Below, piece after piece: positions 37,196 through 52,035 of a stretch of 64,000 nucleotides of DNA (within the stretch, counting starts at the first letter, position 1; every line of letters begins with the position of its first letter). The notes under the pieces were generated by a model, which was given only the letters and a program-made list of their open reading frames with translations, was not told the origin of the DNA and searched no databases. The stretch is from Polyangiales bacterium (GTDB lineage: Bacteria; Myxococcota_A; Polyangia; Polyangiales; JADJQN01). Made by a program: the position numbers and the translations under genes. The stretch covers positions 152,968-216,967 of the forward strand of contig CAXNJO010000009.1 of NCBI GenBank assembly GCA_964202905.1. The letters run 5' to 3'.

Positions 37196-39877
37196 TCACG
37201 GCCCCGCGTCCGGCGCGGGCGCAGGTCCCACCCCGCCGTCGAGCCCGGCGCCTTCGGCCGCGAGCTCCATCATCTCCTCCATCGTGAGGACACGCTGCGG
37301 CGCCGCGGGTGCATCGCCCGCCGGCGCGCCCTCCTCGGCCTGACGCATCATCTCCTCCATCGTCATCGCACCGCCGCCCCCGGCTGCGCGAGGCGCGGCT
37401 TCGCCGGACCCGTCCGCATCGTCGACCACCTCGGCCGGGCGTCCGGTCGACGTGCCCTCCGTCGGTGGGATCAGCCAGTTCGCGACGCCTACCGAGGGCG
37501 CATCGGTGAAGGTGATGATGCCGAGTCCGACCAGCATGACCGCCACGAAGGGCAGCGCCGCGCGCGTGATGTACCCGACGGGCTTGTTGAAGAGCGTGCT
37601 CGCGATGAAGAGGTTCAACCCGACGGGCGGCGTGAGATAGCCGATCTCGAGGTTGACGATGAAGATGATCCCGAAGTGCAGCGGGTCGATGCCGGCCGCG
37701 AGCGCCATCGGGGCGAGCAGCGGCACGAAGATGAAGATCGCGCTCATGATGTCGAGCAGGCAGCCCACCACGAGCAGCAGCAGGTTGACCACGATGAGGA
37801 ACTGCCAGGGCGCGAGATGCATCGAGTCGACCCAGTCGGCCGCGAGCGCGGGCAGGCCCTGCATGTCGAGGAACTCGCCGAAGGTCATGGCGACCACGAG
37901 GATCACGAGGAACGAGCCGAGCATCACGCCCGTTTCCTGGAAGACGCTGGGGATCTCCGAGAGCTTGACCGCGCGGTGGATGAACACCTCGACGACCACG
38001 GCGTACACGACGCTGAAGCACGCGGACTCGATCGCGTTGAAGATGCCGCTGAAGATCCCGACCGAGATGATCACCGGGAAGAGCAGCGCCCAGATGCCGT
38101 CTCGGGTCTCGCGCCAGAGCGTCGATAGCGAGAACGCCTGCCGGGGGGTCTTGTCGCGGAGCCCCTGGACCACGCCCATCGCCATCAGGATCGAACCGAT
38201 CACGAAGCCCGGACCGTAGCCGCACGCGAAGAGTCGCTCGACCTGGATGGGCGCGGTCGTGTTGACGATCGCGTACACGATCATCGGGATGGACGGCGGA
38301 ATCAGGATGCCGAGCGAGCCGGCGCTGGTCACGAGTCCGTACGAGAACTCCTTCTTGTAGCCCTGCGCGATGAGCGACGGCGCCATCATCCCGCCGATCG
38401 CGACGACGGTCGCCGGCGACGAACCGCTGATCGCCGCGAAGATCATGCACGCGAGGACCGCGCTCACGGCGAGGCCGCCGGGTAGCCAGCCGACGAGCGC
38501 CATCGAGAAGGCGACGAGTCGCTTCGAGATCTCGCCGCGCCCCATGACGGCGCCGCTCATGATGAAGAAGGGGATGGCGAGCAGCGCCTGGTTGTCGGCG
38601 AGGCCGCGAACGCGCTCGATCAGCGTGAGGTCGTTGAAGCTCGTGAGCCCCCCCCAGAGGAAGAAGCAGAGCACGGCGACGATGCCGAGGAGCACGAACA
38701 TCGGGAGCCCGAGGGCGACCATCACGAGGATCGCCGCGCCGAGCAGGCCGCCCTTGCCGAGGAAGCAGAGGCCAACCGCGACGACGGCGACGATCGCGAG
38801 GACGACGGGCTTACCGCGGCGCTCGGCCTCCTCCGCATCTCGCTGCGCGGCCAGCATCTCCGGCGTCTTCTCGGCACTCTGGGCCGCCTTCTCAGCGTCC
38901 TCCATGCCCTCGGCCTTCGCGGGCGTCCCGTAGTCGCCACCGCGGAGCGCGCTCACGGCCGCCGCGATGAAGCGAACCATCGTGAGCCCGAACGCGATCG
39001 GCACCGCGACCGTCTGCACCCAGTCCGGGACGCCTGTTTGCGCGAGCCGGCCTCCGATCGCGTAGAGGCCCGTGGCCGGAAGGAACACGTAGCGGTAGCC
39101 GAGGTAGGTGAAGAGCAAGCAGAAGGCGGCCGTGACGAGATAACCGGCGGCGCGGACGTACGCCCGGAAGCGCGCCGGGATGGCCTTGTCCAGCGACTCG
39201 ACGCGGATGTGCTTGCCGATCGGCACGCAGACGCTCGCGCCGAAGAACCCCACCCAGAGGATGAGGAGCATCGAGAGCTCCTTCGCCCACGTGTAGTCGT
39301 CGGGGAAGAAGGTGAACGCGATGTAGACGAAGAGTGGCGCGAACACGAGCGCGGCCGCACCGAGTCGCGCGGCCCACGCGCGCTCCTTCGCGCGCACGGT
39401 GGACGCGATGTAGACGACCAGCGACGCGCCAAAGAGCAACAGATAGACGTTCCGCGACGCGGTCGAGAGCATCAGCCACGCGAGGCCGACGATGCCGATC
39501 GTGAGGCCGAGGGCGACCACGAAAGCCGACCCCGGGAACGGGAATACGCGCGTGCCCTTGCGACGCTGCGCCTCGACGGATCCGACGAGCATCACGAGAT
39601 ACGTGAGCAGCACGGCGGCCCACGGCGCGACGTTCGCGTCGAGCGCGGCGCGCGCGGCGGGCTCGGTGATCCCGGCGATGCCAGCGAGGATCGCGCCGAC
39701 CTTGCTGTCGGGTGCGACGAGTCGCCGATACGCGACGTCGAGAAAGACCATCACCGTCGTCGCGATCAGCGCGAACGAGAGCAGGCCGCTCTCGGCGCGG
39801 AAGACGAGGTCGTCGAGCGCACGGAGGGGGTTGCGCTTCGAATCGCGGGCGGTGGGCACGGCGGCCTGGGCGGACAT
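37196..39877 (-). CDS. TRAP transporter fused small+large permease (DctQM), copy 1
   Basis: Q motif WAKELS..WVGFFGAS..HIRVE; M motifs LLAIPFF, AISGSSPAT, GSLGILIPPSIP, GCLLDI, EIGYLTPPVGLNLF. Confidence 0.92.
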   Translation of the reverse strand: MSAQAAVPTARDSKRNPLRALDDLVFRAESGLLSFALIATTVMVFLDVAYRRLVAPDSKVGAILAGIAGITEPAARAALDANVAPWAAVLLTYLVMLVGSVEAQRRKGTRVFPFPGSAFVVALGLTIGIVGLAWLMLSTASRNVYLLLFGASLVVYIASTVRAKERAWAARLGAAALVFAPLFVYIAFTFFPDDYTWAKELSMLLILWVGFFGASVCVPIGKHIRVESLDKAIPARFRAYVRAAGYLVTAAFCLLFTYLGYRYVFLPATGLYAIGGRLAQTGVPDWVQTVAVPIAFGLTMVRFIAAAVSALRGGDYGTPAKAEGMEDAEKAAQSAEKTPEMLAAQRDAEEAERRGKPVVLAIVAVVAVGLCFLGKGGLLGAAILVMVALGLPMFVLLGIVAVLCFFLWGGLTSFNDLTLIERVRGLADNQALLAIPFFIMSGAVMGRGEISKRLVAFSMALVGWLPGGLAVSAVLACMIFAAISGSSPATVVAIGGMMAPSLIAQGYKKEFSYGLVTSAGSLGILIPPSIPMIVYAIVNTTAPIQVERLFACGYGPGFVIGSILMAMGVVQGLRDKTPRQAFSLSTLWRETRDGIWALLFPVIISVGIFSGIFNAIESACFSVVYAVVVEVFIHRAVKLSEIPSVFQETGVMLGSFLVILVVAMTFGEFLDMQGLPALAADWVDSMHLAPWQFLIVVNLLLLVVGCLLDIMSAIFIFVPLLAPMALAAGIDPLHFGIIFIVNLEIGYLTPPVGLNLFIASTLFNKPVGYITRAALPFVAVMLVGLGIITFTDAPSVGVANWLIPPTEGTSTGRPAEVVDDADGSGEAAPRAAGGGGAMTMEEMMRQAEEGAPAGDAPAAPQRVLTMEEMMELAAEGAGLDGGVGPAPAPDAGP

Positions 39878-40026: not shown

Positions 40027-41214
40027 ATGACCCGCACCGTCGCCGTCTCTCTCGCCCTCGCCGCGCTCGCCCTCGCGGGCTGCGACATGGCCGCCTTCGC
40101 CGCCGGCTCGACCATCAAGGTCTTCGTCCGCGCCTCGCCCGGGATCCAGCGTTACCGCGATCCGGACCTCGCGGAGGCCGCGATCCCCGGATCGATCTCC
40201 CAGCTCGAGGGCGTGATGATCCTCAAGCCCGAGAACGCCGATCTCCGCGGCCTGCTCGCGCGGAGCTACGGCTCGTACGGCTACGGCTTCCTCGAGGATC
40301 GCATGGAGCGCGCCGTCGTCGCCGACGACCCCGAGGGCGCCGAGCACTTCCGCGCGCGGGCCTCGATGGCGTACGCCCGCGGCAAGGAAGTCGCCATGGA
40401 GATGATGACCGTCTGGGAGGACGGCGACGGCGGCGCCATGGGCGCGCACGGCCGCGGGATCGACGCCTGGAAGAGCTACCTCGCCCGCTTCGACGACGCC
40501 GATCAGGTGCCCGTGCTCTTCTGGTGCGCGTACAACTGGGCGCGCTACATCGGCGTCAACCGCGCCGACATGGGCGCGGTCGCGGACCTCGAGTTCGTGC
40601 GCGAGCTCGCGAACCGCGTGTTGCAGCTGGATCGCAGCTACTTCCACTACGCCCCCGTCGCGATGCACGCCGGCATCCTCGCGACCCTGCCCGCGGCGGT
40701 CGGCGGCCAGCCAGAGGTCGCGAAGGCCGAATTCGACGAGGTCATCCGCCTCACCGAGCGCAAGAACCTGCTCTACCTCGTCACCGAGGCACAGCTCGTC
40801 GCCGTCGCGCTTCAGGACCGCGCGCTCTATCGCTCGCTGCTCCAGGAGGTCATCGACGCGGGCGACATCGACCCCGACAACCGCCTCGGCAACCTGATCG
40901 CGAAGCGCCGCGCCGCGCGCTACCTCGCGCGGATCGACGAGCTGTTCGAGCCGGTCGAGGGCGAGACGCCCGCCGCGCAGCCGCAGGGCAGCTGCGACGA
41001 GCCCGGCGCGAACGAGAGCTTTCGAGGACTTCAACCGCCGCTGCACGGTGATGGAGGGCAGCGCCGCGCCCGAGGCGGCGCCGCAGCGGCGGCGCCCGCA
41101 GCGGCGGCGCCCGCAGCGGCGCCCGAGGCCGCGCCCGCCGAGACCGCGTCCGCGGCACCCGCGCCGGCCCCTGCAGCGCCCGCGCGCCCCGCGCGGCGCG
41201 GCTCCCCCCGCTGA
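40027..41214 (+). CDS. TRAP transporter T-component (TatT-type TPR lipoprotein); paired indels in the C-terminal tail
   Basis: Lipobox LAGC; DPDLAEAAIP; YGYGF; GGQPEVAKAEF; QDRALYRSLLQEVI; NLIAKRRAARYL; adjacent to dctP. Confidence 0.85.
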   Translation: MTRTVAVSLALAALALAGCDMAAFAAGSTIKVFVRASPGIQRYRDPDLAEAAIPGSISQLEGVMILKPENADLRGLLARSYGSYGYGFLEDRMERAVVADDPEGAEHFRARASMAYARGKEVAMEMMTVWEDGDGGAMGAHGRGIDAWKSYLARFDDADQVPVLFWCAYNWARYIGVNRADMGAVADLEFVRELANRVLQLDRSYFHYAPVAMHAGILATLPAAVGGQPEVAKAEFDEVIRLTERKNLLYLVTEAQLVAVALQDRALYRSLLQEVIDAGDIDPDNRLGNLIAKRRAARYLARIDELFEPVEGETPAAQPQGSCDEPGANESFRGLQPPLHGDGGQRRARGGAAAAAPAAAAPAAAPEAAPAETASAAPAPAPAAPARPARRGSPR

Positions 41215-41357
41215 ACAACACCGCGAATCACCGCCGCGACACGCACCCGCGGCGCGCGACAGCCAAGCTCGACGACAGACGGACACCGAGCGCGCGCGGC
41301 CCGAGGATGAATCCACGCGCGCGCCGGCCGTCCATGGCCCCACGAGGAGATGATCGA

Positions 41358-42356
41358 ATGAGAAAACATGCGGTTTGGATGCTCGCCCTCGCCTTCGCAG
41401 GGCTCATCGGGCACGGCGCGGGCTCGGCACAGACTCCGGCGACGACGACGCTGTCGTTCGCGACGCTCGCTCCCCCCGGCTCGACCTGGATGCGCGTATA
41501 CGACTCGTGGACGCGCGAGGTCCGTCGCCGCTCGAATCAATCGCTCACCCTGCGGTTCTACGCGGGCGGCGTGCAGGGCGACGAGTCGGAGGTCATCCGC
41601 AAGATCCGCAACGGACGCCTCGACGGCGCCGGCGTGACGGCGGTCGGGCTCGGGCAGGTCTACCGCCCGGCGCTCGTCTTCCAGATGCCCGGCATCCTGC
41701 GCTCGTACGAGCAGCTCGACCGCGCCCGGGAGGCGTTGCAGACCGACATGGAAGCGGGCTTCAGCGGCGCGGGCTTCCGGCTCATCGGCTGGGCCGACGT
41801 CGGGCAGGCGCGCCTCTTCTCGACGGCGCCCATCCGCGTCCCGGCGGATCTCGCGAGCCGCAAGCCGTTCGCGTGGCGCGACGACTCGGTGCTCCCGACG
41901 CTCTACTCGATCATCCGCTCGAACCCCGTTCGTCTCCAGCTGCCCGAGGTGCTCGGCGCGCTCCAGACCAACCGCATCGACACGCTCATCACGCCGCCCG
42001 TGCCGTGCGTGCAGCTGCAGTGGTGCTCGCGCCTGACGCACATGATGGACTCGCCGCTCTCGATCGTGCTCGGCGGCACCGTGATGTCGAAGGCGAAGTG
42101 GGACGCGCTCACGCCCGAGCAGCAGACCATCCTCCGCGAGACGGGCGCGCAGTTCCACGCGCTCGCGCGGCGCAACCTCCGCAACGACGAGCGCACCGCG
42201 CTCACGACCATCGCGTCGCGCGGGATTCAGGCCGTCGCGATCACGCCCGCCCAGCGCGCGGAGTGGGAGCGCCTCGGCACGCAGGTGCGGGAGCGCCTCA
42301 CCGGGCAGATCGCCGACGCCGCGCTCATCGCGCGCGTGAGCGCGTTCGGCCGCTGA
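41358..42356 (+). CDS. TRAP substrate-binding protein (DctP/TatP type)
   Basis: GAGGAG SD; signal peptide; ATLAPPGSTW; YAGGVQGDE..KIR.GRLD; EVLGALQT; WDAL.PEQQ. Confidence 0.92.
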   Translation: MRKHAVWMLALAFAGLIGHGAGSAQTPATTTLSFATLAPPGSTWMRVYDSWTREVRRRSNQSLTLRFYAGGVQGDESEVIRKIRNGRLDGAGVTAVGLGQVYRPALVFQMPGILRSYEQLDRAREALQTDMEAGFSGAGFRLIGWADVGQARLFSTAPIRVPADLASRKPFAWRDDSVLPTLYSIIRSNPVRLQLPEVLGALQTNRIDTLITPPVPCVQLQWCSRLTHMMDSPLSIVLGGTVMSKAKWDALTPEQQTILRETGAQFHALARRNLRNDERTALTTIASRGIQAVAITPAQRAEWERLGTQVRERLTGQIADAALIARVSAFGR

Positions 42357-42424
42357 GTCCGACGCAGCGCGTCATGCGCTGCGACGCGATTTAGAGCATC
42401 AGAAGCGCTCAGGTTTTACGTACG

Positions 42425-42462
42425 ATGCGCGGCGCGAGGAGACTCGCGTCGCGCATTCGTTT
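42425..42462 (+). terminator. Hairpin between tatP and permease copy 2 (terminator, attenuator or mRNA stabiliser)
   Basis: 14-bp stem ATGCGCGGCGCGAG / CTCGCGTCGCGCAT with GAGA tetraloop followed by TCGTTT; second 8-bp hairpin at 42363-42383. Confidence 0.6.
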
Positions 42463-42489
42463 GCCGTCTACAGAGAGAGCACCCACGAG

Positions 42490-45339
42490 ATGGCTGGAGC
42501 CGCCCCGACCGCCAAGCCCGCACCGTTCCTCCAACCGCTCGACCTGCTCGATCGCGGGATTCTCCTCGCGGAGAGCTCGCTCAGCGTCGTCGTCGTGATC
42601 GTGATGGTGCTCGCGGCCGTGCTCGACACGCTGAGCGGCGCGCTGCAATCGTTCGCGGGCATCCAGCTCAAGTTCGCGCAAGGCGCCGGCGATGTGCTGA
42701 TGAACGGCACGATCTGGGCGGCCTTCCTCGGGGCGAGCTTCGCGACGCGGGGGCGCCGTCACCTCGCCATCGACGCCATCGGGCGACTGCTCCCGGACCG
42801 CGCGCGGCGCGTCACGGTGGCCGTCGCCGCGACGCTCGGGGCCGTCGTCGCGTTCGCGCTCGCGCGCGGCGTCTACGAGGCGCTCGCGGAGCAGGCACAC
42901 ACGGTGGCCGAGCAGGTCCGCGCGAACCTCGAGAACGGCATCGCGGATGCGCGCGTCGATCGCTCGTACGAGTACCACTACGTCATCCCGTTCGGCTTCG
43001 TGCTCATCGCGCTGCGGCTGCTGATGCATGGCTTCCACGAATTCCTCGCGGCCTTCCGCGGGGGCGCGGCGCACTCGCCGATCGAGCCCGCGTCGGACAA
43101 GTCGCGCGTGCACCACGCCGAGCCCGAGGACGCGACGCGCCCCGCGGACGAGGGCGTCCCCGCCGAGGCCGCCGTGCCCGCGGAGCTCGAGACGCGCGTC
43201 GCGCCGGTGTCGCAGGCCTCCGGCGCGGAGATCCTCATCGCCATCGGCGCGCTCGTCGCCGTCGTCGCCGCGAGCGCGCGCAGCACGATCGCGACGCCGG
43301 TCGCAGTCCTCGCCGGGCTCGCGGTGCTCACCCTCGGCATCCCGCTCGTGCTGCGCTGGCGCAAGCGCGTGGCGGGCTCGGCCAGCTGGTTCGCGGCGCC
43401 CATCCCGAGCCAGGAGAATCCGCTCACCGACCCGAAGCCCCTCGAGCTCGTCGTCGCGCTCGCGGGCGTCGGCGCGGTGCTGGCGCTCGCCAGCTTCGGC
43501 ATCGCCCACATCGAGTCCATCCCCGTCGGGGTCGGCGTGGCCTTCTTCGCGGGCATGGCGCTCATCGGCGCGCCGCTGTTCACCTTCCTCGGCGGCCTCG
43601 CGCTCTTCCTCTGGCTGCACGGCACGGCGGACATCACGCCGCTGAGCCTCCCGCAGGCCGTCGAGGACGTGCTCGGCTCGCACTTCGCGCGCATGAGCGC
43701 GCTGCCGACGATCCCCGTCTTCACGCTCGCCGGCTACCTGATGAGCGAGGCGAAGACGGCGCAGCGCCTCGTGCGCGTCGCGCGCGCCTTCCTCGGCACG
43801 CTGCCGGGCGGCATCGCCGTCGTGTGCATCGTCGCCTCCGCGCTCTTCACGGTCTTCAGCGGCGCGAGCGGCATCACCATCGTCGCGATCGGCGGCCTGC
43901 TCTTCCCCGCGCTGCTCCGCGACAAGTACCCGGAGCGCTTCTCGCTCGGCCTCGTGACGACGGGCGGCGCGCTCGGCATCACCTTCTTCCCGTGCCTGCC
44001 GCTCATCGTCTACGGCATCGTCGCCGGCTTGCAGGAGCCCGCGCCCGGTCAGGAAAAAGTCGAGATCCAGAAGCTCGCCATCGCGGGCATCGCCCCCGGC
44101 CTGCTCATCATCGTCCTGCTCTCGCTCTACGCCGTCTACATCGGCATCCGCCACAAGGTGCCGCGCTCAAAGTTCGAGCTGCGGGAGGCGCTCGCCGCGC
44201 TCTGGGACGCGAAGTGGGAGCTGATGCTGCCCGCGCCCGTCTACTTCGGCCTGATCTTCGCGGGCCCCGGCGGCGCGGCGGCGTTCACCGCGTTCTACGT
44301 GCTCATCATCGAGACCTTCGTCTACAAGGACCTCTCGCTCACGAAGGATCTCCCGCGGATCATCCCGGAATCGATGGTGCTCGTCGGCGCGATCTTCGTG
44401 AAGATCTGCGCCGCCACGGTGCTCACGTTCTTCTTCGTGCAGGCGCAGACGGCCGACAAACTCTTCGAGAGCCTCACGTGCGGCCCCGAGGCGCAGGCCT
44501 ATCTCGCGGCGCACTCGGACGTGCTCGGCACGTGCCGCGAGGCGGTCGCGGCGCTCGCGGCGGAGGGCAAGCCGGCGGGCGGTCTCATCGACTCGCCGAT
44601 CACGTTCCTGCTCGCCCTCAACGTGTTCCTGCTCGTCGTCGGCATGCTGATGGACATCTTCTCGGCGATCGTCGTGATCGTCCCGCTCATCAGCGGCATC
44701 GCGCTCTTCTTCGGGATCAACCCGTACCACCTCGGCATCGTGTTCCTGATCAACCTGGAGATCGGCTACCTGATGCCGCCGATGGGGCTGAACCTCTTCA
44801 TCGCGGGGTTCCGCTTCAACCGCCCCGTGCCCGACCTCTACCGCGTGGTGCTGCCCTTCATCGGCATCTTCGTGTTCTGCGTCGGCGTCACGACCTACTG
44901 GCCGACGCTGACGCTCTTCGCGCTGCCTGGGCAGTCCGAGACCACGCCCGGACCGACGGCGCCTGCGGAACCCACGCCGACGGACACCATCGCACCAGGT
45001 GGTGAGGGCGGCGACGCACCGCCCCCGGCGGGAGACTGCGATCAGCCGGGTGCGGACGAGTCGTTCGAGGACTTCGAGCGGCGCTGCCTCTCGGGCGACG
45101 GCGCCGGGGCGAACGACGCGCCCGCGCCGGCCGGCGGCGCGGCGATCCCCGCAGACTGCGAGCAGCCCCGGGCAGACGAGACGTTTGCGGACTTCGAGCG
45201 GCGCTGCATGGCCGCCGACGCGCCTGCGCCTGAAGCGGCCCCCGCTGACGCGCCCGCGGCGGCACCCGCAGAGGCGCCGGCGCCCGCGGCGGCCCCCGCC
45301 GACGCGCCCGCGCCGACCGCGCCCCCCGCCGCCCCCTGA
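42490..45339 (+). CDS. TRAP transporter fused small+large permease (DctQM), copy 2
   Basis: WAAFLGAS..HLAID; TIPVFTLAG; FSGASGITI; GMLMDIFSA; EIGYLMPPMGLNLF; Cys-motif tail. Confidence 0.92.
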   Translation: MAGAAPTAKPAPFLQPLDLLDRGILLAESSLSVVVVIVMVLAAVLDTLSGALQSFAGIQLKFAQGAGDVLMNGTIWAAFLGASFATRGRRHLAIDAIGRLLPDRARRVTVAVAATLGAVVAFALARGVYEALAEQAHTVAEQVRANLENGIADARVDRSYEYHYVIPFGFVLIALRLLMHGFHEFLAAFRGGAAHSPIEPASDKSRVHHAEPEDATRPADEGVPAEAAVPAELETRVAPVSQASGAEILIAIGALVAVVAASARSTIATPVAVLAGLAVLTLGIPLVLRWRKRVAGSASWFAAPIPSQENPLTDPKPLELVVALAGVGAVLALASFGIAHIESIPVGVGVAFFAGMALIGAPLFTFLGGLALFLWLHGTADITPLSLPQAVEDVLGSHFARMSALPTIPVFTLAGYLMSEAKTAQRLVRVARAFLGTLPGGIAVVCIVASALFTVFSGASGITIVAIGGLLFPALLRDKYPERFSLGLVTTGGALGITFFPCLPLIVYGIVAGLQEPAPGQEKVEIQKLAIAGIAPGLLIIVLLSLYAVYIGIRHKVPRSKFELREALAALWDAKWELMLPAPVYFGLIFAGPGGAAAFTAFYVLIIETFVYKDLSLTKDLPRIIPESMVLVGAIFVKICAATVLTFFFVQAQTADKLFESLTCGPEAQAYLAAHSDVLGTCREAVAALAAEGKPAGGLIDSPITFLLALNVFLLVVGMLMDIFSAIVVIVPLISGIALFFGINPYHLGIVFLINLEIGYLMPPMGLNLFIAGFRFNRPVPDLYRVVLPFIGIFVFCVGVTTYWPTLTLFALPGQSETTPGPTAPAEPTPTDTIAPGGEGGDAPPPAGDCDQPGADESFEDFERRCLSGDGAGANDAPAPAGGAAIPADCEQPRADETFADFERRCMAADAPAPEAAPADAPAAAPAEAPAPAAAPADAPAPTAPPAAP
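45037..45207 (+). repeat. Two copies (120-nt period) of the motif C-x2-P-x-A-x-E-[ST]-F-x-D-F-E-R-R-C
   Basis: CDQPGADESFEDFERRC (45037-45087) and CEQPRADETFADFERRC (45157-45207). Confidence 0.9.
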
Positions 45340-45342
45340 GCG

Positions 45343-46620
45343 ATGGCGCGCGGGAAGCGGACGCGCGGCGCGCCGCCGCCGACGGGAGGTGGACGAGGCG
45401 CCCTGCTCTGGATCGCGCTGGTCGGGGTCGCCGGCGCGCTCGCGCTCGCCTTCGCGCGGACGCCCGCGCCGCGTCCGCGCCCTCTTCCGCCAGAAGAACT
45501 CGTCGAGATCGACATCCTCACCCCCGACGCGGGCGCGCCCGGCACAAGCGCGCCGGTCGTCGACCCAGCCACCGGGCTGCCACCGATGACCGGCGGCGAT
45601 CGCCAACTGATGGGCTCGCCATGGCACATCGGCATCTCCGGTGCGCGCGATCCCGCTGCCGCGCGCGCCGCGATCGAGCGTGCGTTCGACGAGGTCGCAC
45701 GCCTCGAGTCGCTGCTCAGCGAGTGGCGGCCGACGAGCGAGATCTCGCGCGTGTCCGCAGCGGCCGGCGGCGCGCCCGCGCGCGTCGGGCCGGAGCTGCT
45801 CGCGTGCGTGAAGGCGAGCCTCGAGGTGGCGCGCTGGAGCGACGGCGCGTTCGACATCTCGTGGGCGTCGCTGCGCGGCCTCTGGGACTTCAGCCGCGAC
45901 AGCGCGCACGTCCCGCCGACGCCCGACGCCGTCCGGGCGCGGCTCCCGCTGTGGAACTACCGCAACATCCTCGTCGACGAGGCCGCGAGCACGATCGCGC
46001 TCCGCAGAGCGGGCATGGCGCTCGGCCTCGGCGGCGTCGCGAAGGGCTACGCGCTCGACCGCGTCGCGGAGATCCTCGTCGCCGCGGGCTTCCCCGACTT
46101 CGTCGTCTTCGGCGGCGGGCAGGTGCTCGTCGGCGGCAAGCGCGGCGGCCGCGGCTGGCGCGTGGGGATCCAGCACCCGCGCACCCCCGAGCGCTACTTC
46201 GCGTTCGTCGAGGTCGAAGGCCCTGCCTCGGTCTCCACCAGCGGCGACTACGAGCACAGCTGGGAGCACGAGGGCCGGCGCTACCACCACATCCTCGATC
46301 CGCGCACGGGCTTCCCGAGCGAGCGCAGCGCCTCGGTCACGGTCATCTCACCGACGGCGCTCTGGGCGGACGCGGTCGACACCGCCGTCTTCATCCTCGG
46401 ACCGCGGCGCGGGCTGGACGCGCTGCGCACCGCACCAGGCGGGCCGCACGAAGCCATCGTGGTCGATCCGCAGCTCCGCCTCTCCGCGACGCCCGGCACC
46501 GAGCGGCGCCTCGTGATGCGCGCGACGCTCGACGCGGCGCATCGGCTCGGCGGCTGGACGGACGGAGACGCCGAGCCGGTCGCCGTGCCGCCGCTCCCGC
46601 CGCGCGCCGACGGCCCCTGA
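45343..46620 (+). CDS. apbE: FAD:protein FMN transferase ApbE with an N-terminal TM anchor
   Basis: LMGS; SEW..SEIS; SDGAFDI; LGGVAKGY; GGQ; STSGDYE; YHHILDPRTG; ADAVDTA. Confidence 0.92.
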   Translation: MARGKRTRGAPPPTGGGRGALLWIALVGVAGALALAFARTPAPRPRPLPPEELVEIDILTPDAGAPGTSAPVVDPATGLPPMTGGDRQLMGSPWHIGISGARDPAAARAAIERAFDEVARLESLLSEWRPTSEISRVSAAAGGAPARVGPELLACVKASLEVARWSDGAFDISWASLRGLWDFSRDSAHVPPTPDAVRARLPLWNYRNILVDEAASTIALRRAGMALGLGGVAKGYALDRVAEILVAAGFPDFVVFGGGQVLVGGKRGGRGWRVGIQHPRTPERYFAFVEVEGPASVSTSGDYEHSWEHEGRRYHHILDPRTGFPSERSASVTVISPTALWADAVDTAVFILGPRRGLDALRTAPGGPHEAIVVDPQLRLSATPGTERRLVMRATLDAAHRLGGWTDGDAEPVAVPPLPPRADGP

Positions 46621-46622
46621 CG

Positions 46623-49550
46623 ATGGACGCGCAAGCCGCGCTCGAGGCGTACCGGGAGGCGGGCGGCGAGCCGTGGTCGAAGGCCGCGCGCGAGGCGGTG
46701 GTGGCCCTCGCGGCGCACGCGCCGGCGCTGTTTCCGCTGGTCCTCGCCGAGCCCGCGATGCTGCGCGACGTGCTCGCGCGCCCACTCGCGCGCGCGACGA
46801 GCGCCGAGACGCTGCACCGCGACTTCGCGAAGGCGACGACCATGCTCGATGATGGTCATGCGCTGCGGCGCACGCTCCGCAGGCTGCGACATCGCGCGCT
46901 CGTACGCGTCGCGCTGCGCGAGGTGCTCCGCCTCGCCGACATCGACCGCACGAGCGCCGAGATCTCGGCCATCGCCGCCGCCGCGACGGACGCCGCGCTC
47001 GCCGCCTGCACGCGCAGCGCGTTCGCGCGCCATGGGACGCCGCGCGCGCGGCGCGACGGGGGCGGCCCCGGCGAGGTCGTTCCCCTCGTCGTGCTCGGGA
47101 TGGGCAAGCTCGGCGGCGACGAGCTGAACCTCGGCAGCGACATCGACCTCTGCTTCTTCTACGACCACGACGAGGCCACCGTCGAGCGCGACACGGAGGC
47201 CGCCCGCGCGGGCCGCGAGCTGACCGTGCACGAGCTCTACGGGCGCATCGCGAGCGCGACGGCGCAGGCGCTCTCCGACGTCACGGAGGACGGCTTCTGT
47301 TTCCGCGTCGACCTGCGGCTCCGGCCCGAGGGCACGCGCGGACCGCTCGTGAACTCGCTCGCGAGCGCCGAGCGCTACTACGAGTCGTGGGGCCGCACGT
47401 GGGAGCGCGCCGCGCTGCTCCGCGCGCGCCCGATCGCCGGGGACCTCGCGTTCGGCGCACGGCTCCTCGACGCGCTGCGCCCCTTCGTGTTCCGGCGCGA
47501 GGTGCGGCCGGGGCTCGCGCAGGAGCTCGCAGAGTTGCTGCGCCGCGCACGCCGTGAGCTCGGCGCGGACGCGGAGCGGGACGTGAAGCTCGGCCGCGGC
47601 GGGATCCGCGAGGCCGAGTTCTTCGTGCAGTCGCTACAGCTCGTGTGGGGCGGGCGGCACCCGGCGCTGCAGGTCCCCGGAACGATGGACGCCGTCGCGC
47701 GGCTCGTCGCGGCGGGCATCCTCACCGATCGCGAGGCGCGCGACCTCGCTGCGGGCTGGTCGCTGCTCCGGCGTGTCGAGCACCGCATCCACATGAGCCG
47801 CGGCTACCAGACGCACGCGCTGCCCGAGCCCGGGAGCGCCGAGCACGAGCGCATGGCCCGCTCGCTCGGCGTCGGCACCGGCGCGGCCTTCGCGCACACG
47901 CTCGACGCGGCGCGCGCGCGGATCGCGGGGTTGTTCGCGAGCTTGGAGATCCCGGAAGGGACGGAAACCCCGGACATCGACGAACTCGCGGAGCTCGTGG
48001 CCTCCGGCGCCGACGCGGGCGTCGTCGCGGAGCGCGTGCAGGCGGTGCTCCCCGTGACCGACGCGGATGAGGCCGCCGCGCACCTGCTGCGCCTCGCACG
48101 GCGGGCGGGCGCGCCGCTCGGCCCCGTCGCCCGCGAGCGCACGCCCGGGCTCGGCGCCGCGCTGCTCCGGCACGTTCGGGAGGCGGCGGACGCGGACGCG
48201 GCGCTCTCCTTCCTCGCGGATTTCTTCGCGCGGCTCGGGGCTGGCTTCAGCTACGACAAGTTGCTCACCGCCGAGCCGCGTCTCGCGCGGCGGCTCGTCG
48301 GGCTCTTCGGCGCGAGCGCGACCCTGTCGACGGCCCTCGTGGGGCACCCTGAGGAGATTGATCGCATCCTCGCGTTCGGGAGCCTCCCCGACGAGGCCGA
48401 GATCGACGCCATGCACGCGGCGCTCGACGCGCACGACGACGACACCGAGCGGCTCGTTGCCGCGCTCCGTCGCTGCAAGCGCGAAGTGACCCTGCGCGTC
48501 GGGCTCGCGCACGTCGCGGAGGAGGTGGACGCGGCGCGCACCGAGCGGCTGCTCACTGCGCTCGCCGAGGCACAGCTGCGGGTCGTCCTCGCGAAGGCGA
48601 CGCACGATCTCGGGGCCGAGGGGCTGCCGCTCGTCGTCTGCGGGCTCGGCAAACTCGGCGGGCGCGAGCTCGGCTTCGGCAGCGACCTCGACGTGCTGTT
48701 CGTGTACCGCGAGGCGGGCGAGGTCGACTTCGAGGGCCCCGAGCGCGCGACGCGGGTCGCGCAGCGGACGATGCGCCTGCTCTCGCAGCCGGACGGCGAG
48801 GGCCCCGGCTACTCCACGGACGCGCGCCTGCGGCCGAGCGGCTCGCACGGCATGCTCGTCGTGTCGCGGAGCGCGTTCCAGCGCTACCAAGAGCGCGACG
48901 CGGCGCCTTGGGAGCGGCAGGCGCTCGTGCGCGCGCGCATCGTCGCCGGGGACGCGGCGCTCGGCGCGGAGGTGGCGGCGATCGCGGCACGCGCGGCCTT
49001 CGAGCGTGGCGCTCCGGAGCCCGCGGAGCTCGCGCGGCTGCGGCGGCGCATGGAGGCCGAGCTTGCTGGCGAGAGGGCCGGTCGATATCATCCAAAGCTC
49101 GGCCACGGTGCGCTCGTGGACGTCGAGTTCGTCATTCAGTTTCTGCAAATGCGCCACGGAGGGGACGCCACGGTGCGGCTGACGTGCACGCTCGACGCGC
49201 TCGGCGCCCTCCGGCGCGCGGGCCATCTGGGTGCCGCCGATGCGGAGGCGCTCGCCGAGGCGTGGACGTTCTTCCGCGGGGTCGAGCAAGCCCTGCGGTT
49301 GCTCGACGAGACGCGTGAGCCGGTCCTCGTGTTCGCCGGTCCGCGCGGGGAGTCCACGGGGCGGCGGCGGACGGAGCAGGTGGCGCGCCGGCTCGGTGTG
49401 CGCGACCGCGACGGGGTGCGCCGCGTGGAGGTGCTCGAAGCGACCTACGCGCGCACGGCCCTCGAAGTGCGACGCATCTTCGAGCGGCTCGTCGCGCCGG
49501 TCGGGCTCGAGGCGCCCTTCCCTGCGACGCTCGCGGAGGCGGGCGCGTGA
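46623..49550 (+). CDS. glnE: Bifunctional glutamine synthetase adenylyltransferase/deadenylase
   Basis: Two nucleotidyltransferase domains: GMGKLGGDELNLGSDIDL..RVDLRLRPEG and GLGKLGGRELGFGSDLD..DARLRPSG; KLGRGGIREAEF. Confidence 0.95.
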   Translation: MDAQAALEAYREAGGEPWSKAAREAVVALAAHAPALFPLVLAEPAMLRDVLARPLARATSAETLHRDFAKATTMLDDGHALRRTLRRLRHRALVRVALREVLRLADIDRTSAEISAIAAAATDAALAACTRSAFARHGTPRARRDGGGPGEVVPLVVLGMGKLGGDELNLGSDIDLCFFYDHDEATVERDTEAARAGRELTVHELYGRIASATAQALSDVTEDGFCFRVDLRLRPEGTRGPLVNSLASAERYYESWGRTWERAALLRARPIAGDLAFGARLLDALRPFVFRREVRPGLAQELAELLRRARRELGADAERDVKLGRGGIREAEFFVQSLQLVWGGRHPALQVPGTMDAVARLVAAGILTDREARDLAAGWSLLRRVEHRIHMSRGYQTHALPEPGSAEHERMARSLGVGTGAAFAHTLDAARARIAGLFASLEIPEGTETPDIDELAELVASGADAGVVAERVQAVLPVTDADEAAAHLLRLARRAGAPLGPVARERTPGLGAALLRHVREAADADAALSFLADFFARLGAGFSYDKLLTAEPRLARRLVGLFGASATLSTALVGHPEEIDRILAFGSLPDEAEIDAMHAALDAHDDDTERLVAALRRCKREVTLRVGLAHVAEEVDAARTERLLTALAEAQLRVVLAKATHDLGAEGLPLVVCGLGKLGGRELGFGSDLDVLFVYREAGEVDFEGPERATRVAQRTMRLLSQPDGEGPGYSTDARLRPSGSHGMLVVSRSAFQRYQERDAAPWERQALVRARIVAGDAALGAEVAAIAARAAFERGAPEPAELARLRRRMEAELAGERAGRYHPKLGHGALVDVEFVIQFLQMRHGGDATVRLTCTLDALGALRRAGHLGAADAEALAEAWTFFRGVEQALRLLDETREPVLVFAGPRGESTGRRRTEQVARRLGVRDRDGVRRVEVLEATYARTALEVRRIFERLVAPVGLEAPFPATLAEAGA

Positions 49551-52035
49551 ACGTCACCGTGGCGCGCACGGGCGAGGGGGCGGTGCTCGTCGTCCATGCG
49601 GACTCGGCCTTCGCGGAGCGCGTCGTGCGGGCGCTGCGCGGTTATGGTCTCGAGGCCGAGCCCGTCGCCGACGGCGAGCGCGCGATCGACCGCTTCGTCC
49701 AGCACCCGGCCCGTGCGCTGGTCGTCGGGGCGGAGCTCCCGGGGCGCGATGGGGAGGCGACGATCGAGTCGATCCGCTGGGCGCCCGGCGGCGCGCTCGT
49801 GCCCATCGTGCTCGCCGCCGAGCACGGCAGCCCCGCGAAGCTGAGCGACACCGGTCGGCGCCTCGGCGCTGCCACGGTACACGGCGCCGACGCGCGCGAC
49901 GCGGACCTCGTCGCGCACCTCGTGCGGCGCACGCTCGGGCTGCCCCCTCTCGAGATGGCCATGACTTCGGCGGCCCCTGATGGGCACACCAAGCCCGCGA
50001 TCGCGGCGACACACACCTCGCCGACGCTGAGCGCGCTCGGGGGCTTGGACGGCTCGGTCGCGGGGGACGACGACGACACCCTCGCGCCGCGCGCGTCGGC
50101 GGTCACGTCCCGAGGCGGTCGTGCCCGCGAGACGGTCGCGACCGACACGCGGACGCCCGCCTTCGCCGATCGTGCGAAGCGGCGCCCCGCGACCGACGCG
50201 CCGCCCGACGACGACGCCCCTTCCAACGCGGCGACGACCCGGAGGCCGAGCGCGAGGGTCGGGAGGTCGAACGGCGAGCCGCGGACCTCACGCCGGGCGC
50301 GGCAGCGCACGCAGGGCGCTTCGCCGAATTGCCCTTCCCGCGCGTGCTCGCGCGGCTCGCGGCCCAGCGGGCGACGGGCGCGCTCGTCGTCGTCGCGCCC
50401 GACGACGACGACCTGCGGACGACCACCGGCGAATCTCCGAAGAAGGTCGTGTATTTCCGCAACGGCATGCCGGTGTACGTCCGCTCGAACCTCGTGCGCG
50501 AGTGCCTCGGCCAGTTGCTCGTCGCGAACGACGTCATCACGCCGCACGAGCGGAACGTGTCAGTGCAACGCATGCGCGCCGGAGAGGGCCGCCAGGGCGC
50601 GATCCTCCTCGCGATGGGCGCGCTCGAGCCCGAGCAGTTGCGCGACGCGCTCGCCGAGCAGCTCCGCACGAAGCTCTTCGATCTGTTTCGCTGGGACACG
50701 GGCGAGTTCCGCTTCACGACGCGCGTGCCGCCCCCGCCCGAGGTCGTCACGCTCGAGCTCGGTCTCGCGGAGATCGTGTTCGAGGGCGTGGTGCGCCGCA
50801 TGACACCGGCGCGGCTGCTCGCGCTGCTCGAGCCGAAGCTCGACGCCTACGTCATCCCATCCACGGACCGCATGACGCGCTTCCTGCGCCTCGATTTGGT
50901 CGCAGAGGCGCGCCACGTGCTGCGCGTGCTCGACGGGACGCAGCGGCTGCGCGCGCTGCTGACGTTCGCGGGGCAGCGCCCGGGGGCGGCAGCGCAGCTC
51001 GTCTACGCGATGGAGTGCCTTGGCGCGGTGCGCTTCAGCGACCTGCCCGTGCCGATCGACGGGCACGGGACGACCGACGACGGCGCGGTCGACCGCGTCC
51101 CGACCGACGACGCGCCGGGCGGCGACACCGGACTGCCCGCGTCGCGCGCGGACGCGACATCGCGCGGCCCCATCCCCGCGTTTCGAGCCCGTGCGCCGGG
51201 CGCTTCGGAGACGGCGCGCCTCGTGACGCCAGAGGCCCGCGCCCATGCGCCGCGCGCCGCCGTCGAATCGGAAAACACTCGCAGGCCGAGCGACGGCGCA
51301 GGCCCGGTCCCCGCGGATGGCGGCGTGGACTGGGACGACGAGACGAACGAGGTCAGCAGCGTCGCCGTCCTCGCGGGTTGGCTCGGTTACGCGCCGCAGG
51401 ACGCGCGCAGCCCCGGCGTCGTTTCCGTGCCGCGCGCTCCGGCCGCGCCCGAGCCGAGGGCATCCGACGACGACTACGACGACGCGACGGAGGCAGACGT
51501 CGAAGCGTTCTCCATCGACACGCCGCCGTCGCGCTCGGCCGGCGGCGCCGCCGCGCAGGCGGCTCCAGCGGCGACGACGCCCACCCCCGGAGCGAACCCC
51601 GGACCATCTGCTGCGCCGCACGCAGCGCCCGCGGCCGCCCTCGATGCACGCGTCGAACGCATCGCCGAGGCGGAGCGACACAGCCGCCGCGGGGAGCGCG
51701 CCCTCGCGCGCAGCCGCCTCGAGGACGCCGAGGACGCCTTCGCGCGGGCGGCCGAGCTCGTCCCGGACGACGCCGAGTTCGCCGCGCGCCTCGCGCACAC
51801 GCGGCTGCTCATCCGGCCGGACGACGTGGTCGCCCTCGACGCTGCACTCGAAGCGCTCGGGCGCGCAGCGCACCTCGCGCCGCAGCGCGCACTGCCGCAC
51901 CTGCTGCTCGCCGACGTTCACCAGCGGCGCGGCGATGTCCCCGCTGCGCGCAGGGCCTTGGAGGACGCGCTCACCGCGGATCCGGGCTGCCGCGAAGCGC
52001 TCGCCCAACTCGGCGCGCTCGCTCCGCCGCGCTGA
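49547..52035 (+). CDS. Pseudo-receiver / DUF4388-like / TPR protein; -1 indel at the C-run 50217-50220 joins two ORFs
   Basis: Receiver-like N-terminus; GRFAELPFPRVL..KVVYFRNG.P..SN..ECLGQLL..FRWDTGEFRF; C-terminal TPRs; adding one C gives DDDAPFQRGDDPEAERE. Confidence 0.78.

Follow-up and report, generated by a model that had tools for sequence, protein, structure and literature searches.

A cysteine-bracketed acidic motif on TPAT permease tails of Myxococcota: a possible bait for TatP, the soluble binding protein

How does the soluble binding protein of a tripartite ATP-independent periplasmic (TRAP) transporter find its permease, and how do the tetratricopeptide repeat (TPR)-protein-associated TRAP transporters (TPATs) move lipids across the periplasm? 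Both questions are touched by a locus in a 64,000-nucleotide stretch of DNA from a Polyangiales bacterium (contig CAXNJO010000009.1, positions 152,968 to 216,967; hereafter “the window”), where the permease carries on its C-terminal tail two copies of a 17-residue acidic motif bracketed by cysteines (C-x15-C). In the text covered of two TPAT reviews (PMC5812351, PMC11713862), hydrophobic ligands pass from TatT to TatP and on to TatQM, TatT binds long-chain fatty acids, and the TatT trimer binds TatP 3:3 and passes the ligand to it; the same text holds no mention of an acidic permease tail. We suggest, at a rough probability of 0.45, that the motif on the permease tail acts in the periplasm as a multivalent bait helix that catches TatP, the soluble shuttle, comparable to the tail of MlaA in the Mla system; the partner is inferred.

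The four genes concerned are listed below (coordinates are those of the window).

40027..41214, plus strand: tatT, the TPAT T component, a putative lipoprotein with an Ala/Pro tail (Pfam TAtT, E 1.9e-51; PDB relatives 8g52 and 3u64)
41358..42356, plus strand: tatP, a DctP-family binding protein and the proposed partner (Pfam DctP; Tp0957 among the top PDB matches)
42490..45339, plus strand: QM1, a fused DctQ-DctM permease (Pfam DctQ at residues 69-180 and DctM at 351-806; hydropathy)
37196..39877, minus strand: QM2, a second fused DctQM permease, divergent from tatT (Pfam DctQ and DctM)

With Pfam matches to TAtT, DctP, DctQ and DctM in a single plus-strand run, the locus qualifies as a TPAT on its genes, and its gene set and folds are those of the TPAT of Treponema pallidum and of Es_TatT of Enhygromyxa salina. 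The tatT product has a putative lipobox, LAGC (by eye). Unlike the TatP of Treponema, the window TatP lacks a lipobox: it has a signal peptide and a net charge of +11, and a Cys follows the signal peptide in none of the 23 listed Myxococcota TatPs, although a TatP lipobox is not required of every TPAT. A further difference lies in the permease, whose long acidic repeat tail is absent from the spirochaete and gammaproteobacterial TPATs examined. By hydropathy, the QM1 tail extends 140 residues, rich in Ala, Pro and Gly, beyond the last membrane helix. The motif copies are as follows.

45037..45087, plus strand: C-x15-C motif, permease copy 1, QM1 residues 850-866 (translation; helix predicted)
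45157..45207, plus strand: C-x15-C motif, permease copy 2, QM1 residues 890-906 (translation)
40993..41044, plus strand: C-x15-C motif copy in the TatT tail, frame broken in the assembly (in frame in the relatives G001 and L282)

Both permease copies translate as the original prediction, made from the sequence alone, had claimed. When one base is removed from the tatT copy, it is identical to the two permease copies at 40/51 and 38/51 positions. Across the genome (5.7 Mb), a strict motif pattern matches only the two permease copies. With looser patterns a six-frame scan adds one true copy, which an unrelated membrane protein with a single membrane pass carries on contig C3; because the patterns give so few matches, chance occurrence is excluded. 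The consensus is C-D-x-P-R-x-x-E-S-F-E-x-F-x-x-R-C, in which the invariance of C1, E8, R16 and C17 is partly by construction, these residues being fixed by the search pattern, and each copy has a net charge of -2 to -4. The earlier statement that this is no named domain holds: no match above the cut-off or of significance was found in Pfam, NCBIfam, PDB sequences (best E 0.32) or Foldseek (best E 7.9), and an ESM Atlas query with the tail gave no usable match. Weak Pfam hydrophobin and phosphatase matches on the repeat tails fell below the cut-off and were rejected. Literature searches, whose reach excluded most subscription papers and all supplements, found no description of these tails. The motif is thus an unlisted mini-module and, if it works like the MlaA tail, a new version of a known device.

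Where is the motif at home? The QM1 orthologs form a tight clade (69-94% identity) of 28 loci, two of whose tails are cut by contig ends; all 26 complete tails carry one to four copies (25 by the pattern, one as a variant), so that the motif is not absent from orthologs. On TatT it is found in only 4 of 67 distinct proteins (those of the window, G247, G003 and L282); this count comes from 68 rows with one duplicate gene, and G247, which shares its core with G001, is counted once. The home of the motif is therefore the permease tail. The original claim that two subunits of one transporter share it stands in this family and fails as a general rule, and a hand-off between TatT and permease through a shared motif could hold only in this one family. 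As a side observation, the G247 TatT (L035/L113) is identical to that of G001 over the aligned part, yet its genome is placed in another family; the contig is possibly mis-binned.

When 401 genomes of the order were searched with a profile, 69 gave matches at E <= 0.1, with strong matches in the families f1 (3/3), f16 (25/31), f22 (14/32, with the unpublished G122 included) and f18 (1/1) and in two f17 genomes; most others were weak. In the phylum-wide search, full-length copies occurred only in G000 (this genome), G043 and G050 of 401 genomes, with six further partial matches. The record titles of the motif carriers are mostly Polyangiales, Sandaracinaceae, Polyangiaceae, Myxococcales or Deltaproteobacteria. 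DNA-pattern matches in records from other phyla (9/46) contain no motif open reading frame under the pattern used and were discarded.

The 135 distinct DNA copies encode 119 peptides, and their synonymous codons vary freely, Ser being written with both TCN and AGY codons; in other words, the motif is conserved as protein, not as DNA. This bears on the idea that the copies are a neutral repeat or an in-frame mobile DNA element, which their spread within genomes and their optional presence in non-TRAP hosts would suit. Length and residues are fixed while synonymous change is free, nothing in the DNA is conserved beyond the protein, every complete QM1-clade tail retains the motif, and the TatT copies of the window and of same-genus G001 differ in one residue and in three synonymous codons. 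Such an origin is barely credible, and neutrality is possible for the non-TRAP copies only.

On the motif, AlphaFold predicts a helix from F10 to C17 (helix 17-25) with a mean pLDDT (predicted local distance difference test) of 74.8. In a single-chain model of an intact TatT, a helix follows a linker of pLDDT <50 and the motif reaches a pLDDT of about 70, a weak result for the motif in that only three alignment rows included it. The “stapled acidic mini-helix” of the original prediction thus agrees with the helix predicted between the cysteines, and the staple is a deduction from the pairing of the cysteines and the export of the hosts. The predicted element is a disulfide-stapled acidic amphipathic helix that starts behind a Ser cap and is carried by a disordered tether. 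It likely faces the periplasm: in the text covered on SiaQM, the C-terminus of DctM is proposed to be periplasmic, its authors stating that the side was not directly observed, and three Arg precede the last QM1 membrane helix in a positive-inside pattern.

The closest functional parallel comes from E. coli Mla, in which, as far as the text covered describes it (bioRxiv 10.1101/2022.06.08.495403), a short acidic C-terminal helix of MlaA on a flexible linker is the bait for the soluble lipid shuttle MlaC. The QM1 tail would likewise present an acidic helix on a flexible periplasmic linker, here by prediction. It differs in that no homology to the MlaA tail was found and that the motif is repeated, bracketed by Cys and carried mainly by the inner-membrane transporter, with a partner that is deduced. 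In our proposal, the stapled tail helix would catch soluble TatP and keep it near the permease; two to four baits per permease would, through avidity, concentrate TatP locally, and the staple would pre-form the bait helix. One family would have copied the bait onto TatT, and TatP would be caught at both ends of a likely fatty-acid route; other envelope proteins would have acquired the motif as an optional cassette, usefully or neutrally. Given the long-chain fatty acid binding of TatT homologs, a fatty acid is the likely cargo. The ATP-binding cassette importers OpuA and GlnPQ, in the sources covered, also keep binding domains near the transporter, in their case by gene fusion, whereas the tether here would be non-covalent and exchangeable. 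No binding-protein docking step of this kind was found in the TRAP literature searched. We also considered the tail as a substitute for a TatP lipid anchor and dropped this idea, the gammaproteobacterial TatPs examined lacking a lipobox (by eye) while their permeases are tail-less.

That TatP is the partner is the most plausible form of the capture that was originally proposed, and the sister permease adds to it. The QM2 tail of the window contains no Cys motif and carries the following element instead.

37346-37363 and 37268-37285 (span 37268..37363), minus strand: QM2 tail, a pair of acidic TMEEMM helix repeats, an unstapled counterpart of the motif core

Helices of this kind are present on both permeases of the genome, and DctP-type proteins are their common partner class, for which reason a DctP-type protein would be the simplest shared partner. 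TatP also suits the role in being soluble and basic and in having several Arg that are conserved in 60 Myxococcota TatPs but rare in 17 outgroup TatPs, for example R73 (98% against 18%) and R281 (97% against 0%). Beyond these two permeases, nearly all Myxococcota DctM tails examined have repeated acidic-hydrophobic helix motifs. QM2-type tails repeat a TMEEM-like core in 20/20 cases (46 cores; shuffles, mean 8.3, maximum 18), and other DctM tails of the order, long and acidic, with repeats such as TLDDL, LDLDALE, DDLMNDIMG or DEDLFREMMG, contain an acidic-hydrophobic core in 15/21 (61 cores; shuffles, mean 10.2, maximum 22); four of the six without the core pattern show DDLM/DEDLF-type repeats (by eye). 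QM1-clade tails have 45 cores against a shuffle mean of 0.8. These counts are to be read with the knowledge that the core pattern, hydrophobic-acid-acid-hydrophobic, was written after the tails were seen and that kin are not independent. In three such tails (L173, L174 and L177), larger Cys-rich segments lie ahead of the DDLM-type repeats (by eye), and in L174 an acyl-CoA-ligase-like gene stands between tatP and the permease (by eye).

The S-F-E-D-F core of the motif resembles the exit helix of an EF-hand. The stapled motif lacks a D-x-D-x-D-G loop and gives no EF-hand match, and a PROSITE-like EF-hand pattern (a D-x-[DN]-x-[DG] loop of 12 residues with a final E) matched no QM1-clade tail; the same pattern occurs in 8/20 QM2-type tails, seven of them with Cys, where the Pfam EF-hand matches are below the cut-off. 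In those 7/20 tails, from one family, an EF-hand-like loop that contains Cys closes with the core, and the single loops are arranged in tandem (L230, L238, L240-L243 and L247); a periplasmic calcium-dependent module is possible there. From these comparisons, the helix core is the constant element, apparently rigidified twice, by a Cys pair and, in a paralog, by an EF-hand-like loop. Such loops, together with a Cys-x17-Cys insertion in the DctM domain of QM1 (window ~44480-44535) that clade members share, would also fit a tail that folds back on the permease, or senses Ca2+ or redox state, and regulates the transport elevator. We think this quite unlikely, the stapled motif being without the calcium loop, and multiple copies, long tethers and transfer to unrelated hosts being better suited to a partner in trans.

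Could that partner be TatT itself, the helix tying the permease to the TatT trimer? Up to three or four copies could match a trimer, and the genes are neighbours in many genomes. TatT is, however, net acidic (about -10), whereas TatP is basic and soluble, and in the intact-TatT model the motif sits behind the disordered linker at about 70 pLDDT, a weak pointer given its three motif rows; we regard TatT as a very unlikely receptor. The net negative charge of every copy weighs against the older suggestion that TatT and permease copies self-associate into a trans-periplasmic tether. The near-identical copies on both subunits of this family invite that thought, but most genomes have permease copies and no TatT copy, and self-association is highly improbable.

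The motif also has non-TRAP hosts. A profile scan of 1.84 billion representatives returned 27 matches, 26 of them examined: 10 DctM tails (one judged by length only), 2 chimeric-looking sequences, 1 chance match in a repeat precursor (P0027, rejected) and 14 non-TRAP proteins. The original prediction had treated random occurrence in unrelated proteins as damaging; unrelated hosts do exist, but they are not random: by eye, nearly all would be exported or membrane-anchored, with a lipobox or else a membrane helix ahead of the motif. Those in known genomes include a Ser/Thr kinase that has an FGE domain, and also a DUF898/TPR/SH3 protein. In the family of the C3 protein, for whose beta-domain no longer homologs were found, the motif is a cassette in two of six members. 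One motif-like copy (profile E 7.6e-4) occurs in a 102-residue lipoprotein on a viral contig (L268:4001-4306); this is an isolated instance and may be due to chance or to phage mimicry.

These hosts could mean that the helix is a general envelope docking tag, binding not TatP but another periplasmic partner, specific to Myxococcota (a scaffold, a chaperone, a protease adaptor or a protein associated with the wall), and in this way positioning many membrane proteins. Copies in lipoproteins, the kinase, the DUF898/TPR/SH3 protein and the bitopic beta-domain protein fit such a tag, as does the restriction of the tails to Myxococcota among the three groups examined. Against it, acidic helix patterns in low-complexity linkers of this genome, with a filter applied, occur only in the two DctM tails, and the non-TRAP copies are as sporadic as the C3 family shows. 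Moreover, in 2/3 non-TRAP copies with a known genome, the nearest of 124 permease copies at the DNA level is that of the same genome, because of which the permease tail is likely the donor. We therefore hold a general tag to be rather unlikely.

Several observations weigh against TatP capture as proposed here, and they should be set out together: (i) the 14 non-TRAP matches fit a more general partner equally well; (ii) 63/67 TatTs are without the motif; (iii) TPAT permeases without an acidic tail were found in 10/10 gammaproteobacteria, where nothing follows the last helix of the DctMs beside tatT, and in 9/9 spirochaetes examined (9 DctMs from 10 loci), where five end at the last helix and four have a folded-looking domain instead, and because such tail-less permeases exist the tail is an accessory; (iv) TatP basicity is not specific, 14/17 outgroup TatPs being net positive as well, and 3/10 other binding proteins of the genome having +2.4 to +4.1 charges per 100 residues against 3.3 for TatP; and (v) the conserved Arg of Myxococcota TatPs may owe their conservation to ancestry, high guanine-cytosine content or ligand binding. 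The “Arg-rich TatP” of the original prediction is accordingly a weak argument, tail-less lineages having mostly basic TatPs too. The third point also means that the helix core is specific to Myxococcota among the three groups. As to the spirochaete DctMs with a terminal domain (L252-L255), this domain is 190-350 residues long, and in L254, the one scanned, it gives weak DUF5640 and lipocalin-like matches; it is possibly a fused lipid-binding domain.

It remains to justify the TatT copy, whose frame is broken where the T run at 41020-41022 has one base too many. The original prediction had repaired this site and a second one downstream.

41045..41211, plus strand: TatT linker after the motif, with a compensating one-base loss near 41081-41082 (alignment with the intact ortholog L282)

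The motif is in frame in G001 and in the metagenome sequence L282, where TatT runs through the motif, TVMEG, an Ala/Pro linker and PARPARRG in a single frame and has the same C-terminus as the original frame of the window; therefore both indels are required. For the first, one contig from run X4, possibly the source sample, is identical to the window as far as 41021 and from there goes on with the letters found behind the third T, although with only 10 letters past the site it is short of the 31-letter bridging rule. No listed contig piece of the sequencing runs bridges 41020 with 31 letters on both sides, most of the short pieces that cover 41081 match through low complexity, and no listed RNA run matched. 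For the second indel the evidence is orthology, and its exact site (CC at 41081-41082) is placed from a 12-base repeat unit. Compared with G001 over aligned conserved coding DNA (linkers aligning poorly left out), uncompensated single-base differences occur only in tatT and in secD (minus strand), where one extra base at ~34979 splits the gene near its C-terminus, likely an error of the same type; against G002 proteins, two frame switches appear in 60 genes, in carB (G000:C4 ~461152) and in one other gene (G000:C13 ~71790). Given relatives in frame, an X4 contig without the extra T and similar one-base breaks in secD and carB, the frameshift in tatT very likely arose in the assembly, and the break should be annotated as an assembly error, not as a pseudogene; a recent true mutation keeps a slight chance.

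Some observations around the locus should also be mentioned. QM1 is followed by apbE (45343-46620), both here and in G002. A second tatT-dctP pair is located at G000:C7:2339-4548, with no permease found adjoining it, and an orphan TatP with 54% identity at G000:C6:211438-212409; most relatives searched have several TatP-like paralogs. At 49547-52035, two overlapping open reading frames in different frames resemble one response-regulator-like protein with a frameshift near 50330 (by eye).

In its broadest form, our proposal would be that Myxococcota TRAP permeases carry their own multivalent TatP capture arms, with a helix rigidified twice, and that the stapled form is a plug-in tag by which kinases, lipoproteins and possibly one phage lipoprotein tap the periplasmic fatty-acid shuttle; taken as a whole, this extension is unlikely. 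The narrower idea of TatP capture offers a testable handle, namely a synthesisable 17-mer, one helix in three natural variants, and candidate TatP Arg residues. If true, it would add a tethered-capture step to TRAP transport and, for recruitment in the periplasm, a very small disulfide module.

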